The notes beneath the pieces are model-generated. The model was given only the letters and a program-made list of their open reading frames with translations. It was not told the origin of the DNA and ran no database searches. From sequence record OZ035790.1: 64,000 bases of DNA. One strand, given 5' to 3'. A program made the translations under genes and the position numbers. This document shows, piece after piece, positions 5,040 to 48,290 of this stretch. Within the stretch, counting starts at the first letter, position 1. Every line of letters begins with the position of its first letter. This DNA comes from Felixounavirus LF110P4.

Positions 5040-5520
5040 ATTAAATTTTGTATTACATTGAGTATAAAAATAAGCTATAACACCTGACTTGTCAACAGAT
5101 TTTATAGCTTATTTGGCAGATTTTTTATAAGGCTACTGCCATCCTTCCATACCCTACCTTACCACACCTAACCATACCTAACCAAACTACACCATACAAT
5201 ACCTTATTAAAAGACCCTCTTAAAGACCTTTTAAAAAGGTAAGTCTCATTTTAATGTAGCTCCGATTAACTACCCACACCTTACCTCACCTGACCTGACC
5301 TGACCCTACCTAGCATTACCGTGCCACACCTCACTTAAAAACCCTCTTAGAAGACTCTTAAGTGATGTAATCGGATTTTAATGTAGCTCCGATTAACTAC
5401 CCGCACTTTACCAAACCTCACCCTACCCTACCAGACCTTACCTAACCGCGCCGTACCTCATTAAAAGACCCTCTTAAAGACCTTTTAAAAAGGAGCCTCC
5501 GAAGAGGCTACCTAGTCAAC
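5040..5520. repeat. repeat-rich intergenic region with conserved modules and hairpins
   Basis: C/A-rich (ACCTAACC-type) runs; modules AAAGACCCTCTTAAAGACCTTTTAAAAAGG (two copies) and hairpins with conserved loop TTTTAATGTAGC; 3' hairpin GGAGCCTCcgaaGAGGCT acts as terminator for minus-strand gene. Confidence 0.6.
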
Positions 5521-6569: not shown

Positions 6570-6995
6570 TTAGTTGATTGTTAAGTTGTTTGTAAAGAAC
6601 CCTCAATAGAAGACTCTTTAGAAACTTGGTAGATTTTTAACGTGGCTACTACCATCCACCCACACTTTGCCATACCTCACCGCGCCTTACCCGACCTGGC
6701 TGCACCTTGCCTTGCCAAACATCACTTAAAAACCCTATGAGATACCCTATCGAGTATAATTTAAAGGCTCTTAAGTGATGTAAGTCTCATTTTAATGTAG
6801 CTGAGACTAACTACCCATACCCTACTTTACCTTGCCGTACCGTACTTTACCCGACCACACCGGACAATACTTAACCCTACCTCACCCGACCGGACATCAC
6901 TTAAAAACCCTCTTAGAAGACTCTTAAGTGATGCTGGTGAGTACCCGTTGGTCTATGCTGTTCAGTATACTCACCAAATTTTCTATGTCAACAAC
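6570..6995. repeat. second copy of repeat-rich intergenic module
   Basis: Shares CTCTTAGAAGACTCTTAAGTGATG and hairpin AGTCTCAttttaatgtagcTGAGACT plus C/A-rich tracts with region 5040-5520. Confidence 0.6.
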
Positions 6996-8137: not shown

Positions 8138-8294
8138 TACATGCGTAAAGCTCTAAGTCGTTTTTATCTGGTTTATGGAAACAGTTTGACCCACAACGAC
8201 ACCGGAATAACTTACCATCAACACGAAGAATGAATGTTTCAAGCTCACCATCTTCTGTAAGAACTGCGTTCTTAAATTTATCTTCTACAGTCAT
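8076..8294 (-). CDS. zinc-finger protein
   Basis: CRCGSNC ... CNAC Cys clusters. Confidence 0.4.
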   Translation of the reverse strand: MTVEDKFKNAVLTEDGELETFILRVDGKLFRCRCGSNCFHKPDKNDLELYACNACDTWYHSEVKNDNSVQTK

Positions 8295-38857: not shown

Positions 38858-39967
38858 ATGACTACTAAAACTAAAGCACAGATTGACGCAGAAATTTACA
38901 AACTGGTTAAAGAAGGTAAGCTGACTAAAACAGCTATTGCACAGAAATTTAATACTTCAACCCGTTCAGTCGGTCGTGCTGTAGAGCGTCATGAAGCAAC
39001 CTTAAAAGGGAATAAGAAGGCAACTTCTACACCAGCTACGAAGACTTTGAAACAAGTTGCTAAGACCTTTAAGAAGAAAGCTGGAAAACCAGTTGAAAAG
39101 GTAGTTAAAGACGCTGTACAGAAAGCTCCAGTAAATAAACTGCACGAAGCTATGCAGAAAGATGACAAGATTGAGTACATGATTACTGGTGATTCTGTAA
39201 TTATGACTTATGGTTCAGAATCTGAAATTGTTGAGTCTACTCATCCGAACTATCAAGAGATTGTAGTTCATGTTGTGAAAGGTGAGTTCAAGAAAGCATT
39301 TGAACTGATGAACATTCGTAAGTCTATCGAAAACTTCACTCAGGGTGCTATCACAATCAAAGGCGACAAGCTATTCTACGGTGCTGTTGAGATGCGTTCT
39401 ACTCTGGTTGACCGTATTCTTCACATGATGAAGACTGGAGACAAAGGTTTTGAACGCCTTGTGATGTTCTTCGAAAAACTGATGGAAAACCCATCTAAAG
39501 ACTCTGTAGAACAACTTTGGGGCTTCGTATCTCACCTTGATGTCGAAATTGATGAGGAAGGCTACATCATTGGTTGGAAGAAAGTATCCACTCGTGAAGG
39601 CAAGCTGGTTGACTCCCACACCTACAAAGTACCTAATGATTTGGGTAACGTTGTAGAAATGCCACGTTGGATGGTTGATAATAACCGTAACGTGACTTGC
39701 TCTCAAGGTCTTCACGTTGGTGCTTGGGATTATGTTCGTTGCTTCTCAGGTGATACAATTCTGAAGGTTCGTGTCCATCCACGAGATGTTGTATCTGTTC
39801 CAACTGATTACAATGATATGAAGATGCGCTCGTCTCGTTATGAAGTTGCAGCAATCGTTGATAATCAACGTAAGGTACTGAAAGCGTGGGATGGCAAGAC
39901 TGAAGCTCTGCATGTCATCGTTGGCACTGCTGGTGAACTTATCTCTCAGCGTAAACGTGAAATCTAA
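38858..39967 (+). CDS. rIIB: rIIB protein
   Basis: Segments matching T4 rIIB: RSTLVDRIL, ENPSKDSV, MPRWMVDNNRNVTCSQGLHV, VRVHPRDVVSVPTDYNDMKMR. Confidence 0.85.
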   Translation: MTTKTKAQIDAEIYKLVKEGKLTKTAIAQKFNTSTRSVGRAVERHEATLKGNKKATSTPATKTLKQVAKTFKKKAGKPVEKVVKDAVQKAPVNKLHEAMQKDDKIEYMITGDSVIMTYGSESEIVESTHPNYQEIVVHVVKGEFKKAFELMNIRKSIENFTQGAITIKGDKLFYGAVEMRSTLVDRILHMMKTGDKGFERLVMFFEKLMENPSKDSVEQLWGFVSHLDVEIDEEGYIIGWKKVSTREGKLVDSHTYKVPNDLGNVVEMPRWMVDNNRNVTCSQGLHVGAWDYVRCFSGDTILKVRVHPRDVVSVPTDYNDMKMRSSRYEVAAIVDNQRKVLKAWDGKTEALHVIVGTAGELISQRKREI

Positions 39968-39983: not shown

Positions 39984-40006
39984 AGGCTGCTTCGGCGGCC
40001 TTTTTT
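39984..40006 (+). terminator. rho-independent terminator
   Basis: GGCTGCttcgGCGGCC hairpin followed by TTTTTT. Confidence 0.6.
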
Positions 40007-40067
40007 ATTTGTATTTTGTGCAGAGTGCTGTATAATTGTTGTCACGATAAACTAAACAGGAGAACCA

Positions 40068-43337: not shown

Positions 43338-44123
43338 ATGGGTATTGTAAAAATCATCAAAGGTGATATCTTTGACGCATTTGATAAAGGCAAATTTGAT
43401 ATCATTGGTCATGGTTGCAACTGTATGAATTTCATGGGTGCAGGTATTGCAGCAACTATTTCTAAGCATTATCCAAAAGTGTATGATACTGACACAGAAG
43501 TTTACCTGTTTGCAGGTGGCATTCGTCACAAACCCTGTGAAAATTTACTAGGTAATTTCTCTGTAGCACGTTTAAAACAAGGCCGTATAGCTAACCTTTA
43601 CACCCAACTTCATACTGGTAAAGATGCCCGATACAGTGCTTTAGAGTCATCTTTGAAACAGCTTAACAGATACTGTGAAGTTAACCAGTTGAAGAAAGTT
43701 GGTCTACCTATGATTGGTGCAGGTATCGGTGGACTTGACCCTCAAGCTGTCACAGTTATCATTAATCAGGTGATGAAGAGTGTAGATGTTTATCTGTATG
43801 TCTATGAAGCAAAAATGTATAATGAGTTACACTCAGGTTGGAAAAACTACTGTGAACCAGAATACTTTGCAGGTGTAGTTGTGTTCACAGATAACGCAGT
43901 TACCCTCTTCAGACGAAGAAAAGGTAAGATACATCAAAGTAACCCTCCGGTTGAAAAGATGTCTCTAAGTAACGCTCTAGTTACCCACCTGTCGAAGAGC
44001 AATCACAGAATTGCAGTAACATTTGGCAGTGATGCAGATGCTTATATCTATGCAAGAACTGATGAGGATATTGAGTTAATCTTCTCTTCACCAGAACTTA
44101 CCTTCTTAGACGCAAAGAACTAA
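43338..44123 (+). CDS. macro-domain-like protein (putative ADP-ribose binding/hydrolase)
   Basis: N-terminal KGDIFDA ... DIIGHGCNCMNFMGAGIAATI resembles the macro-domain Gly-rich ligand-binding loops; C-terminal about 130 aa unassigned. Confidence 0.45.
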   Translation: MGIVKIIKGDIFDAFDKGKFDIIGHGCNCMNFMGAGIAATISKHYPKVYDTDTEVYLFAGGIRHKPCENLLGNFSVARLKQGRIANLYTQLHTGKDARYSALESSLKQLNRYCEVNQLKKVGLPMIGAGIGGLDPQAVTVIINQVMKSVDVYLYVYEAKMYNELHSGWKNYCEPEYFAGVVVFTDNAVTLFRRRKGKIHQSNPPVEKMSLSNALVTHLSKSNHRIAVTFGSDADAYIYARTDEDIELIFSSPELTFLDAKN

Positions 44124-44189
44124 GAAACTTCGTAGTATATTCACAATAGACTAAGCCTTTCTTATCTGGTAAATTTTTCAGGTAAGGAG

Positions 44190-44370
44190 GGCTTTTTCAT
44201 TTCAGATTTGTGCAGGTAGAGTTCTGTAGAGAAATCTATAGAGAAAATTTTGAACTCCAAAGAGAAAATTCATTTTCAAACTGTGCAGGTAATCTCCAAA
44301 GGGTTTTTTCATTTTCAAAACGTGCAGAGAAAAATCAGGTCGGGCAAGAAAAATCATTTTAGAATTGTGC
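44190..44370. repeat. four dispersed copies of a TTTCATTTTCAnnnTGTGCAGGTA-like motif
   Basis: Copies near 44191, 44265, 44303 and 44349 at roughly 40-75 bp spacing. Confidence 0.55.
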
Positions 44371-44410
44371 AGGTAGGTGGGGGTAGGTGGGGGTAGGTGG
44401 GGGTAGGTGG
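44371..44410 (+). repeat. tandem 10-bp G-rich repeat (GGGTAGGTGG x4), G-quadruplex-capable
   Basis: Four perfect or near-perfect tandem units giving successive GGGGG runs separated by TAGGT. Confidence 0.7.
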
Positions 44411-44572
44411 GACTGTCGCCATTTCTCACAAGGCTACCACATCTGAAAATAAAAGTCAACAGAAAAATTTGTAGCGGATTGAAAAATAATTCTTGATTGT
44501 AGTTCTGTTTTGTGGTAGTCGCGCGCACCCGTTTCATTACAATTTTTGCAAAAAATATTTTTAAAAATTTTC

Positions 44573-44601
44573 TTGACTCTTTGAACTGGGTTATCTAATA
44601 T
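44573..44601 (+). promoter_or_regulatory. sigma70-like promoter (TTGACT-17-TAATAT) with upstream A/T tract
   Basis: Near-consensus hexamers with 17 bp spacer, AT-rich UP-like element upstream, 50 bp before ORF 44654. Confidence 0.55.
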
Positions 44602-44653
44602 TTGCATCAGACGGGGCGACAAGCTCAACAACCTTAAACTAGGAGATTCAAAA

Positions 44654-45037
44654 ATGGCATATCGTGCACCTAAATTCATCAACAAAGACAACTTTCGCAA
44701 CGCACTGGAGAAGTCACTTGATGAAAATTTTAAAGGTAACATTATCGTTGTTCACGCATTCAATTTTAAGTATGATGTAAACGGGAATAGAATCAACCAT
44801 TACACGGCAACCATGTTAGATGGTACACTTTCAAGTGAAAAAGTCGTACTAAATGCACTGGCAGGACGTGGAAAGGTATTAGTAAGATGTGATAAGAGAC
44901 GTTATCAGGGCGGTGCATATGGTTATGATGATGCTGTTTACCATCTTGAAAATATGGGCTATCAAGTAGAAAAAGCTGGAGCATCACAAATCATCGGCAG
45001 TGATGGTTATGTAACTATCTTCAAAATTAACAAATAA
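44654..45037 (+). CDS. hypothetical protein
   Basis: 127 aa; preceded by conserved leader CCTTAAACTAGGAGATTCAAAAATG. Confidence 0.45.
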   Translation: MAYRAPKFINKDNFRNALEKSLDENFKGNIIVVHAFNFKYDVNGNRINHYTATMLDGTLSSEKVVLNALAGRGKVLVRCDKRRYQGGAYGYDDAVYHLENMGYQVEKAGASQIIGSDGYVTIFKINK

Positions 45038-45124
45038 AGTACTTTACAAGGGGCTTATAGTTCGATAAAGTAAGCCCCAGATAAAGAGCTTTACCACTCA
45101 ATCCTTAAACTAGGAGATTCAAAA

Positions 45125-45667
45125 ATGAAATGTTATCACGGTACTACTCAAGAAAATTTCCTCAACCTGATTAATAACGGTGATAAACCATCAGGCGCAT
45201 GGAATTGTTCGGATATGGACGGCAATTTTTACGTGTATCCAGAAAATAAAATCTATGGCGACGATGATGAAGAGATAACATCGGAGGGCATTCAGCAAGC
45301 TCTAGGGAACGCCACTATTACGGCGGCCTTCCAGATGAAAACCCAAAATATTGTTATCTTAGAACTCGATATTCCAGATGATGAGCTAAATGATGATTAT
45401 TCTTGTGATAATATGTCGAGTGTAGCAAGTTTTACAGAGTACTTTGATGTAAACTGGATTAAAAAGGTCTATACAACAGAGTTTAACGCTATGTATTCGC
45501 CTTTTTGTCTTCCTTCACTGGATAACCCAAATATGAACTATCTTGATGAGACATTAGAACTACTTGCTAAAAGTGTTCAACAGTCGGACAGTATTCAGGT
45601 TTTTTGTGACATCATAGATACACTGACAGGAAACATTGCAGAAGAGGATTTAAAGAGCTTTTTCTAA
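45125..45667 (+). CDS. hypothetical protein
   Basis: 180 aa acidic protein; same conserved leader/RBS upstream. Confidence 0.45.
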   Translation: MKCYHGTTQENFLNLINNGDKPSGAWNCSDMDGNFYVYPENKIYGDDDEEITSEGIQQALGNATITAAFQMKTQNIVILELDIPDDELNDDYSCDNMSSVASFTEYFDVNWIKKVYTTEFNAMYSPFCLPSLDNPNMNYLDETLELLAKSVQQSDSIQVFCDIIDTLTGNIAEEDLKSFF

Positions 45668-45699
45668 AAACCTATGCAATCACCTTATAGACACTAATC

Positions 45700-45719
45700 A
45701 GCCCCTTGTAGGGGCTTTT
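45700..45719 (+). terminator. rho-independent terminator
   Basis: AGCCCCttgtaGGGGCT hairpin followed by TTT. Confidence 0.5.
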
Positions 45720-45733
45720 AGAGGGCTTAAATC

Positions 45734-45967
45734 ATGCTTACAACCGTTTACCTCATCCTTTCTATTTGTAACGGTCATTCATGCGATTTTAAAGGGCTTG
45801 AAGAGTTTACAGGAAGTAAAGAAAATGCTATTCAAGTTTGCCAGATAGCAAGGAAAGACTATCCCGCTAGTGATGATATACAATGTTACTTTAAGACAGA
45901 AGATGACGACGGAATCTATTTTGACAGTGTTGACGGTAAATATGAAATTATCATTGAAAAAGACTAG
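45734..45967 (+). CDS. hypothetical protein
   Basis: 77 aa ORF. Confidence 0.4.
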   Translation: MLTTVYLILSICNGHSCDFKGLEEFTGSKENAIQVCQIARKDYPASDDIQCYFKTEDDDGIYFDSVDGKYEIIIEKD

Positions 45968-46056
45968 ACAAGCCCAATAAAAGTCTGTAAATTGTCAATC
46001 AACGGGGAGGGAATGACCTTCCCCACTAAATAAAGTCCTAAACTGGAGTTATCAAG

Positions 46057-46320
46057 ATGGAAAACGTAGAATTAACCACACTTTTACAAATTGCAACTGA
46101 CAAAGAAGATGTAGCACTGTTTCACCGTATCGAAAGCGATTTATTCAATGGTGAAATCATCAAAGAATCTTATGAAGTTGTCGGATTCAAAGATGGTAAA
46201 GCGTTTGGCTTTTTTGACCTCGACAAAGGCAACGCTGTCACAAAGTATGATGTTGTATCTTGTGAGATTCTTACAAAATACAACGAAAAAAGGCTTGCAA
46301 CATACGCCAACATACAGTAA
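46057..46320 (+). CDS. hypothetical protein
   Basis: 87 aa; variant of the conserved leader upstream. Confidence 0.4.
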   Translation: MENVELTTLLQIATDKEDVALFHRIESDLFNGEIIKESYEVVGFKDGKAFGFFDLDKGNAVTKYDVVSCEILTKYNEKRLATYANIQ

Positions 46321-46386
46321 ATTACTAATCAACGGGAGGCGATAACCTCCCCACTAAATAAAACCCTTAAACTAGGAGATTCAAAA

Positions 46387-46635
46387 ATGGCAACTATCCG
46401 CGCTACTGTCAATGCCTATGGCTGTTATACTCTGGACGTTAAATTTGATATTGGTGGAACTGATGAGTGTTTTTCATTAGTGAAGACAGTTATCAAACAA
46501 GTTATTCCAGATTATAACCCTACTGATGACTTCTGGAAAGATGCTGTAAAAGAGGCATTAAACGACGAGCATCACTATCATTACTGGGGTGACTTGATTG
46601 TTTCCCTGTACTACAATAAACAAGGTTACAACTAA
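46387..46635 (+). CDS. hypothetical protein
   Basis: 82 aa; conserved leader CCCTTAAACTAGGAGATTCAAAAATG upstream. Confidence 0.4.
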   Translation: MATIRATVNAYGCYTLDVKFDIGGTDECFSLVKTVIKQVIPDYNPTDDFWKDAVKEALNDEHHYHYWGDLIVSLYYNKQGYN

Positions 46636-46699: not shown

Positions 46700-48290
46700 C
46701 GTCTATTGAATCCTTATACAATCCCTTTCCAGAATCTTATCAGACCTTAAAAGCAATAACTCTATAGTCTACTCTATAACCTCTTATCAAATCAACTTAA
46801 ATAAAAGCCAATAACCCCCAGAAAGGGGATGGCCCATTTAAACGCTCTATAAAGCTCTATAACAGCCTTATCAACCTAACTTAAGGGATTGCATTAATCA
46901 ACCTTAAAAAGCTCTTTACAGGGCTTTATAGAGGCTTAAAAGAATCTTATAAGGGTGTAAGCTTATAGGCTGGTTAGTATCTTGTGAATGGTTAAACAAC
47001 CCCCTTGCTAGTCACTAAAAAGCATGTTATAGGGGCTATAAAGTTACTTCAAAGTTACGTAAAAGAGGCTATAAAGTTACGTAAATGCTAGCCCCCTTAA
47101 CATTTTCTTAACATTTTCTTAACAATTTCTTAACAAACCCTACATAGTTATGCTTGTTAGCAACTTGTTAGCACCTTGTTAAATCTCTGTTAAGACCACG
47201 TAAAAGCCTTGTAAGAGTCTTTGACATAGCCTTAAAAGCTCCTGTAAAGCCCTATAAAGAGCTATCTGTACAGTTGGGGGTAGATACTAGGGAGAGCCTT
47301 AAAAGAGCCTATAAAGAGCTATAGAGAGCTTTTAAGAGGTATGTTTAATAGTTCACTAAGAAAGGAAAGGGAACGGTAAGAAAAGAGATAGTGACCATGT
47401 TAATAGCTTGTTAAAAAGATTAAACACTTGTTAGAGGCTTGTTAATTATCTTAACAAAATAACTCTTTAAAATTAACTTGTTAGCTCTTGTTAGTCATCT
47501 GTTAAGATTCTGTAAAGCCTATTCAGCACTTGTTAGAAATCTGTTACAGCCTTGTTAGTTCTGTTAAGAATCTGTTAAGACCTTTGAAGAGTTGTTAAGA
47601 GCTTGAGAGAGTTGTTAAGAAATTGTTAAGGATATTTTAAAATTTTGCAAAGTACTTGTAAGGGAGCTGTTAAGGGCTACCAAGCAGATATACATCCTAA
47701 TCAGATATTTTTGAGTTCCTTCAAAGACCCTAAAAAATGACTTGATAGTCCTATTTTATAAAAATTTTAAGATTCTGAATAATTACCTATACAGTCTTTT
47801 AAAAATACAGGTAATAACAGGCTTAGAAGATACCTTGTTAGTACCGTGTTAGACCTTGTGAGATAAGGTCTGTAAAGATATTCCTGTTAAGTTTGTTAAA
47901 ACAGTCTATATAGAGGCTTAGTAATACCTAGTGAACACCTATAGAGGGTATCATAGCTGACATAGAGATTAAGAGGTGTATAGGAGCTTCTAAGAGGGTG
48001 TAGAGAGATGGTTAAGGTGATTGTATAGGCTGTTAAGAAGGCTTGTTAGAGGGCTAGTTAGAAGGGTTATACAGAGGGCTATTAAGACCACTAGATAGTT
48101 ACTAAGATACTATATAGTACTATATAACTATATAGAGAGTAAGATTAAGAAGGTTGTTAAGAAGGGTAGATATTTTGTTCACATATAATGGTGACCCAGA
48201 GGTTGGGACAACCGATAAAATTTTATAAAAAATATAAATTTCGTAAATTTTACTCAATAAAAAGCCCCCAATTAAGGAGGCTCTTAAGAT
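46700..48290. repeat. ORF-free iteron-rich region (about 1.6 kb)
   Basis: No ORF of 60 aa or more on either strand; more than 25 copies of TTGTTAG / CTGTTAAG-type motifs (dense 47100-47640), CTATAAAG(A)GCT and TATATAG repeats. Confidence 0.7.

Follow-up and report, generated by a model that had tools for sequence, protein, structure and literature searches.

The window analyzed here (the whole stretch of 64 kb) belongs to the genome of a Felixounavirus (Ounavirinae, Felix O1-like myovirus); its G+C content is 39%, and many Escherichia and Salmonella phages are 90-95% identical to it. In this genome, a non-coding spacer of 530 bp separates a macro-domain gene and its terminator from a conserved sigma-70 promoter, and a G-rich tandem array is embedded in this spacer (Table 1). 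The location is the one given in the earlier note, i.e., between the macro-domain gene, which is recognized by the Pfam Macro profile and lies upstream, and the promoter of an accessory cassette (TTGACT-17-TAATAT), which lies downstream. The TTGAC and TA.TAT elements of this promoter are invariant in 14 aligned genomes, and the distance from the array to its -35 element is 161 nt. Judging from its position, it would drive a right-terminal cassette of five small genes (44654-46635), the function of which is unassigned. The terminator hairpin dominates the predicted fold of the whole spacer, and the z-score of this fold (-1.7) is terminator-driven.

Table 1. Features of the spacer harboring the decamer array and of its neighbors (positions in the 64-kb window).
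Feature	Position	Strand	Evidence and remarks
Macro-domain gene	43338-44123	+	Pfam PF01661, E 8e-7; PHROG 335; labelled "phosphatase" in relatives
Intrinsic terminator of the macro-domain gene	44153-44204	+	17-pair stem-loop (44153-44194) followed by a T tract; annotated in phage ASO1A
Boxes 1-3	44197-44328 (starts 44197, 44270, 44309)	+	Consensus motif
Box 4, TCATTTTAGAATTGTGCAGGTA	44354-44375	+	Consensus motif; the array extends its GTGCAGGTAGGT core
Perfect decamer array (GGTAGGTGGG)x4	44372-44411	+	Tandem Repeats Finder, G4 regex, G4Hunter, simulation, quadruplex-aware folding
Degenerate inverted copy of box 1 and flank	44421-44454	-	G-rich allele only; 13/1000 shuffles score as well; weak
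Conserved block AAAAGTCAA.AGAAAAAT.TGTAG...AAAAATAATTCTTGAYT	44451-44498	+	Invariant-column runs in the alignment; directly after the variable G/C tract
Putative sigma-70-type promoter TTGACT-17-TAATAT	44573-44601	+	Preceded by an A/T-rich stretch; annotated as promoter in ASO1A
First cassette gene	44654-45037	+	127 aa, PHROG 4495 (no known function)

As for the cassette itself, a near-identical 5' leader with a ribosome-binding module (CCTTAAACTAGGAGATTCAAAA-ATG) precedes three of its genes (44632-44653, 45103-45124, and 46360-46386), and an intergenic element of about 95 nt (45023-45138) recurs several times in relatives with a different cassette gene content. Both look like repeated junction modules, which might let small early genes shuffle.

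The position of the array with respect to the genome end can be derived from phage Pr103Blw, whose direct terminal repeat (DTR) of 581 bp was defined with PhageTerm (PMC8303462). The homolog of this DTR corresponds to positions 47107-47681 of the window, 2.7 kb downstream of the array; the latter is thus placed about 3.3 kb inside the right physical genome end, and the possibility that it represents a terminal repeat or a pac site was rejected. The DTR homolog, with its edges and flanks (46839-47181, 47560-47620, and 48027-48136), harbors dense tandem arrays of 10-12 bp with TGTTAAG/CTTAACA and related motifs, which are candidate terminase or concatemer-processing signals. T7-type terminal repeats are flanked by repeat arrays, of which those at the DTR edges are reminiscent.

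The array was identified by Tandem Repeats Finder as a perfect repeat (period 10, 4.0 copies, 100% matches). The four tandem G-rich units that the earlier note had described were therefore found again, with coordinates one base off: read from 44371 to 44410 (GGGTAGGTGG), the sequence opens with a unit, AGGTAGGTGG, that begins with A, a trivial offset with respect to the perfect four-copy array. The runs of five G separated by TAGGT, which had also been described, are present in three cases, the last run being composed of three G. With its 40 nt, the array is the longest perfect tandem repeat (period 4-15) of the window; in 200 first-order Markov simulations the longest repeat measured 27 nt and the mean was 23 nt. 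The array is confirmed as a real feature and not a chance one.

Two ORFs (44250-44396 on the plus strand and 44202-44537 on the minus strand) overlap the array, but indels of 10 and 20 nt would frameshift them, and a coding role was discarded. The spacer is annotated inconsistently across the genomes of the relatives. No Rfam family (Rfam 15) was retrieved from the region 43900-44900 at E-values up to 10, and only tRNAs pass the Rfam gathering thresholds in the whole window; a ToxI-like antitoxin mimic, made up either of the box repeats of 36-45 nt or of the decamers, was set aside as lacking Rfam support. As to published work, the repeats listed in the Felix O1 genome paper do not include the decamer array; the main text of the PhageMaP paper on Bas63 is silent on the spacer; and the literature search retrieved neither a transcriptome nor a TSS map of a Felixounavirus.

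Upstream of the array, and partly overlapping it, the spacer harbors four boxes sharing the consensus ACTCCAAAGRG-W5-TCATTTTCAA-NN-TGTGCAGGTA and spaced by 73, 39, and 45 nt, the upstream part of each one being composed of ACTCCAAAGRG and an alternating A5/T5 run. In the 64-kb window the motif is confined to this spacer (4 matches vs. 0.16 expected). The boxes and their spacing are essentially invariant in Felixounavirus and in Suspvirus SUSP2, SUSP1 and Mooglevirus have a spacing of 75/41/45, and in the Erwinia phage phiEa21-4 (Kolesnikvirus) the boxes are recognizable as four repeats of 37-39 nt; as a whole, they are better conserved than the adjoining 3' end of the macro-domain gene. The four-box array was also seen in L030 (580-740), L013, and L015-L017. 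To judge by its layout, it looks like a set of iterons or operators. A search for the box motif in bacterial genomes retrieved five single matches from unrelated AT-rich MAGs, which is about the chance expectation. The possibility that the boxes are promoters was rejected by inspection, since no acceptable -10 element lies at the right spacing on either strand; a candidate leftward promoter based on the invariant TTGACT (reverse complement of AGTCAA) has a poor -10 element (TAGCCT or TAAGAG). A replication origin with iterons finds no support in the cumulative GC skew, which is lowest at about 12 kb and peaks at the DTR (about 47 kb). The skew points weakly, being confounded by transcription direction, to the divergent promoter region at about 12 kb as the likely origin, and a resemblance to DnaA boxes is found only in the boxes of the Erwinia phage. 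A weak fifth box-like sequence (TTTTTTATTTGTATTTTGTGCAGAGTGCTGTA, 39994-40032; BLAST E 0.26 vs. box 1 and its flank) follows the terminator of the gene at 38858-39967, which raises the possibility that the box originated from terminator tails or is connected with them. Within this otherwise strongly constrained control region, the decamer array occupies the sole fast-evolving, low-complexity segment.

To compare the copy number of the decamer among the relatives, 14 Ounavirinae were aligned, IMG/VR was scanned with a gapped pattern, and 50,697 phage records (INPHARED) were searched by BLAST with a 141-nt query. The variation across isolates that the earlier note had proposed to look for does exist, with 1, 2, or 4 copies, between conserved flanks (TTGTGCAGGT and TGTCGCCATTTCTC). 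In the alignment, the close relatives harbor two decamers and VpaE1 harbors one. The IMG/VR scan retrieved 11 contigs with the G-rich allele, ten of which have an insert of 15 nt (two copies) and one an insert of 5 nt (one copy), and none of which has three or four copies. A further scan, aimed at three exact copies, matched no viral contig, and its two metagenome matches turned out to be unrelated GC-rich or telomere-like repeats. In INPHARED, 139 records cover at least 80% of the query (best identity 85.1%); the sampled full-length matches occupy 120-121 nt or 111 nt of the record, which amounts to a deletion of 20 or 30 nt, and among the approximately 139 database phages with the G-rich allele, none of those that could be read or sized exceeds two copies. 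In summary, one copy is present in VpaE1 and in L027, two copies in every other G-allele genome read, and four in the window alone. The commonest two-copy allele is AGGTGGGTGCAGGTGGGGA, i.e., GTGCAGGTAGGTGG-GTGCAGGTGGGG, in which the second unit repeats the box core GTGCAGGT; the further sequenced variants are ...GGGGGTAGG... and ...GGGTGTAGG..., and the two-copy variants of the 20-mer include GGGGGTAGG and GGGTGCAGG. The nearest relative in this region, contig L021 (96.6% over 1.5 kb, gap included), has the allele AGGTGGGGGTAGGTGGGAC, which is shorter than that of the window by 20 bp, otherwise identical to it, and hence its exact two-copy progenitor. Every change in length observed in the G allele is a multiple of 10 bp.

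The array is probably a recent, isolate-specific slippage expansion in a low-complexity spacer, neutral or nearly so. The decamer would have originated when the fourth conserved box had its 3' core (GTGCAGGT) reiterated; this duplication would have been followed by the homogenization of the two units and then, in this lineage, by a single recent duplication of 20 bp, brought about by slipped-strand mispairing or by unequal exchange between the two decamers. The functional consequence would be none, or small. The perfect identity of the four units fits a recent event, and the existence of the two-copy progenitor in L021, together with the absence of three- or four-copy relatives from IMG/VR and INPHARED, argues in the same direction, as does the lack of a conserved G-quadruplex (G4), of a significant Watson-Crick structure, of an Rfam family, and of a conserved ORF. 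On the other hand, the flanks are under strong purifying selection, so that the spacer itself may be constrained, and the fact that all the length steps are of 10 bp could reflect selection on phasing. 

If the latter were the case, the tract would be a spacer setting the four boxes apart from the downstream block and the promoter, and the 10-bp units would alter the distance while keeping the helical phase (10 bp being about one helical turn), thus tuning factors bound at the flanks. The steps of 10, 20, or 30 bp among the alleles of the G clade, the strong conservation of both flanks, and the distance from GCAGGTAGGT to AAAAGTCAA, which is 52 nt both in the two-copy G allele and in the C-rich allele of Felix O1, are consistent with this idea. 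However, the length differs between genera, with values of about 46-48 nt for Suspvirus and Mooglevirus, 42 nt for VpaE1, and 72 nt for the window, no binding factor is known, and the slippage of a 10-bp unit gives 10-bp steps regardless of selection; we consider selection on phasing improbable.

It might also be argued that the true genome has two copies and that the additional 20 bp derive from a mis-assembly or from polymerase slippage during library preparation. The four-copy state is indeed unique among more than 150 relatives, its units are perfectly identical, and public records break or overlap in the spacer, suggesting that the region is troublesome for assemblers. Nevertheless, a 40-bp repeat is far below any read length, which makes a mis-assembly unlikely, and the natural one- and two-copy alleles show that the locus really slips, so that an artefact has very little probability. 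As regards the individual records, the ends of KhF1 (KT184313.1; L001 and L003) overlap in the spacer, Andreotti (MN850610.1) starts at the G tract, and the contig of FSL SP-107 (KC139638.1) ends in the spacer too; in addition, MN850637.1 ends inside one of the pentamer arrays described below. This suggests that sequence coverage falls, or assemblies break, at these G-rich repeats, and the array flags a spacer that assemblers handle poorly.

The claim of the earlier note that the array fits the canonical G4 motif was borne out by G4 prediction tools, which the note had suggested. The pattern G3+N1-7G3+N1-7G3+N1-7G3+ matches positions 44379-44411 on the plus strand, and this is the sole match on both strands of the 64 kb; the array is also the top G4Hunter site, with a score of 2.72 in the best 25-nt window (the next one in the whole stretch scoring 1.6) and of 2.23 over the 40-mer, above the usual threshold of 1.2-1.5. 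For the four-copy allele, the minimum-energy structure predicted by ViennaRNA with quadruplex energies, which relies on an RNA energy model, contains a G4 (-40.4 vs. -30.9 kcal/mol); with the same setting, a G4 is also predicted for Felix O1 when the minus strand of its allele is folded. The one- and two-copy alleles have neither a canonical G4 nor a G4 in the quadruplex-aware ViennaRNA fold, and they mostly score 1.2-1.6 on G4Hunter; the common two-copy alleles, with 1.2-1.56, are not above other loci of the same contigs. No significant Watson-Crick hairpin or cruciform was detected around the array for any allele or strand (z from 0.6 to -1.9 vs. shuffles). The G4-capable motif is not retained at the orthologous positions of the relatives; the window owes its canonical motif to the duplication of 20 bases, which is seen in no related phage.

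In place of the G allele, about 40% of the Felixounavirus records (a share estimated from partial BLAST coverage) harbor a plus-strand C-rich tract, as do the Suspvirus, Mooglevirus, and Kolesnikvirus genomes read; this tract lies about 20 nt further downstream than the G tract. In Felix O1 (L033) the tract, CCAGCCCAGCCCCTCTCCCCCTCTTACTCCCCCTCCCCCC (8183-8223), is a near-mirror homopyrimidine sequence, found at the same site in L012 and L014-L017; on its minus strand it contains (8192-8223) the only canonical G4 motif of the genome (86 kb), which also has its strongest G4Hunter window there (-2.64). With -1.6, the tract of phiEa21-4 ranks second behind an unrelated site, and the canonical G4 is absent from that genome. 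If read as sense RNA, the C-rich tract of Felix O1 would resemble a Rho-loading (rut-like), C-rich and G-poor stretch located just past an intrinsic terminator. Taken as a whole, the position tends toward strand-asymmetric G/C runs, with an inconsistent strand, strength, and presence of a true G4 motif; this inconsistency argues against a conserved G4 mechanism and leaves open a looser role, either as a spacer prone to non-B DNA or merely as a low-complexity one.

These data bear on the possibility that the G4 is functional, i.e., that the DNA or a read-through RNA folds and terminates, pauses, or insulates transcription, or that it marks a replication or recombination site, with the G/C-run tract being maintained on either strand. 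Such a function would agree with the top G4Hunter score and the only canonical motif of the window, with the G4 predicted in the fold of both the four-copy allele and the Felix O1 minus strand, with the absence of a competing complementary strand or hairpin, and with the C-rich tracts shared by Suspvirus, Mooglevirus, and phiEa21-4; moreover, the fact that the same position is the most G4-prone one both in the window and in Felix O1 is a hint of more than drift and, as such, an argument against a neutral expansion. However, the strand flips between the alleles, so that a single transcription-coupled mechanism cannot fit both; most of the phages with the G allele have two copies (VpaE1 has one), no canonical G4, and unremarkable scores; the tract of phiEa21-4 is not the strongest site of a genome in which the canonical motif is missing; and the four-copy state is unique among all the relatives examined. 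A functional G4 is therefore unlikely in our opinion. The view expressed in the earlier note, according to which the G4 could regulate or punctuate transcription, is unsupported as far as a designed feature is concerned, the four-run motif being present in this genome only and the other clades having a C-rich tract; most likely, the predicted motif is a by-product of the expansion rather than a conserved element. 

Returning to the neutral or nearly neutral expansion, if it had any effect, this would be that of a non-B-DNA or RNA obstacle, with a G4 forming on the non-template strand or in the RNA reading through the terminator. The structure might form when the duplex is opened by read-through from the macro-domain operon or by the negative supercoiling behind the strong early promoter located about 160 bp downstream, and the two transcription units would be slightly better insulated from each other.

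A bolder proposal is that the G/C-run tract is a selected part of a conserved non-coding module of the Ounavirinae (terminator, four phased boxes, tract prone to non-B DNA, conserved block, and early promoter) and behaves as a supercoil-responsive switch (G4, i-motif, or H-DNA, whichever strand is involved), insulating or timing the right-terminal early cassette or marking a replication or recombination site. We regard this proposal as rather improbable; if it were true, the four-copy allele would be a stronger version of the switch. More generally, if the G/C tract and the four boxes formed a structural control element, the natural one-copy, two-copy, four-copy, and strand-flipped alleles would provide a tractable system for testing non-B DNA in a lytic phage.

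The window harbors other G-rich repeats, namely five arrays of 12-17 in-phase (NNGGT)n pentamers on the minus strand (5129-5472 and 6640-6901), G-rich on the sense strand, each one preceded by AAGAGGGTYTTTTAAKT and followed by GGGTAG and a hairpin. The stems of these hairpins covary (AATCGGA/TCCGATT vs. AGTCTCA/TGAGACT; GGTAG/CTACC vs. GGCAG/CTGCC), the arrays follow an intrinsic terminator and precede the next TTGACA promoter, and the copy number of the unit of about 127 bp varies among relatives, up to six places per genome. They do not match any Rfam family, and in Felix O1 no array has six out of ten consecutive pentamers with GGT in phase. An oligomeric protein that binds nucleic acids would fit their regular spacing of 5 nt, which is kept up for about 60 nt. 

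The decamer array could in principle be a member of this family, binding an oligomeric protein or acting as a priming or recombination signal. In both kinds of array the sense strand is the G-rich one, the decamer array has TAGGT once every 10 nt, and the order of the elements (terminator, T-rich module, GTG.AGGT, GGT-rich array, and promoter) is shared. Nonetheless, the 530-bp spacer and the pentamer-array regions have no significant similarity, and the relatives harbor two decamers vs. 12-17 pentamers. In addition, only half of the pentamers of the decamer array fit NNGGT; at least six out of ten consecutive pentamers with GGT in phase are found only at 5129-5472 and 6812-6901, and the flanking AAGAGGGTYTTTTAAKT and GGGTAG hairpin modules are absent at the decamer array. 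We thus give little credit to the membership of the decamer array in the pentamer family.

A further explanation invokes an adaptive expansion, in which the array would work either as an RNA repeat titrating a host defence factor or as a Chi-like array (GTAGGTGG vs. GCTGGTGG) attenuating RecBCD coming from the right end. The selection of a non-coding repeat expansion has a precedent in phages (PMC3475682). As for the RNA, the unit of 10 nt differs from the 36-nt one of ToxI, the type III antitoxin RNA, and neither an antitoxin nor any other Rfam RNA matches the array at E-values up to 10. As for Chi, the array offers GTAGGTGG, identical to the octamer 5'-GCTGGTGG-3' at 6/8 positions and lying on the strand read by RecBCD when it enters from the right end, 3.3 kb away; however, a Chi octamer with two mismatches is not known to be active, and the plus strand of the window has no true Chi site. 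Since the relatives also manage on one or two copies, a decoy or mimic seems extremely unlikely. Only two true Chi octamers occur in the window, both on the minus strand; counted inward from the left genome end, they lie at 2.0 kb (49115) and 6.7 kb (53836), on the strand that RecBCD would read when entering from that end; about 0.65 are expected from the composition, and their presence is not significant alone.

The comparative data show how weakly a function is supported by a motif match found in one genome only. The allele with the additional 20 bp, unique to this genome among those examined, could be used as a strain marker, and the four-box array, shared by four genera, and the (NNGGT)n arrays are more intriguing features than the decamer array.

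Lastly, the array can be compared with known systems. As in promoter or non-template-strand G4s such as that of Neisseria pilE, it has four G-runs of at least three residues, short loops, a high G4Hunter score, and no competing hairpin, and it lies on the non-template strand, upstream of a predicted promoter. Unlike them, its motif is not conserved in the relatives, the sister clades have their G-runs on the opposite strand, its folding is predicted only, and it lacks an associated sRNA or promoter known to open the duplex.

In the Pectobacterium phage phiTE, the unit of the pseudo-ToxI repeat resembles the 36-nt unit of the antitoxin RNA, and the repeat expanded under experimental selection (PMC3475682). 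The likeness consists in a non-coding tandem repeat of a lytic myovirus, the copy number of which increased with respect to the wild-type state, probably by strand slippage; the differences lie in the 10-nt unit, which matches no RNA family, and in the lack of evidence of selection.

The homopurine-homopyrimidine mirror repeats forming H-DNA or i-motifs are comparable to the C-rich allele of the Felix O1 type, which occupies the same position in an AT-rich genome with strand-asymmetric G/C runs; in contrast, the window allele, about 20 nt upstream of the C tract, has T and A interspersed on the G strand and is not a mirror repeat.

Slippage-made VNTRs or minisatellites, such as the bacterial contingency loci and the intergenic repeats of phages, differ from the array in that the latter bears no sign of high-frequency switching or of a copy-number phenotype and is expanded in one genome. 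Like them, it is non-coding and composed of identical units arranged head-to-tail, it has one, two, or four copies among close relatives, and one duplication of a two-unit block explains its expansion. The array is a new instance of this ordinary kind, a slippage-made repeat that happens to match the G4 motif.
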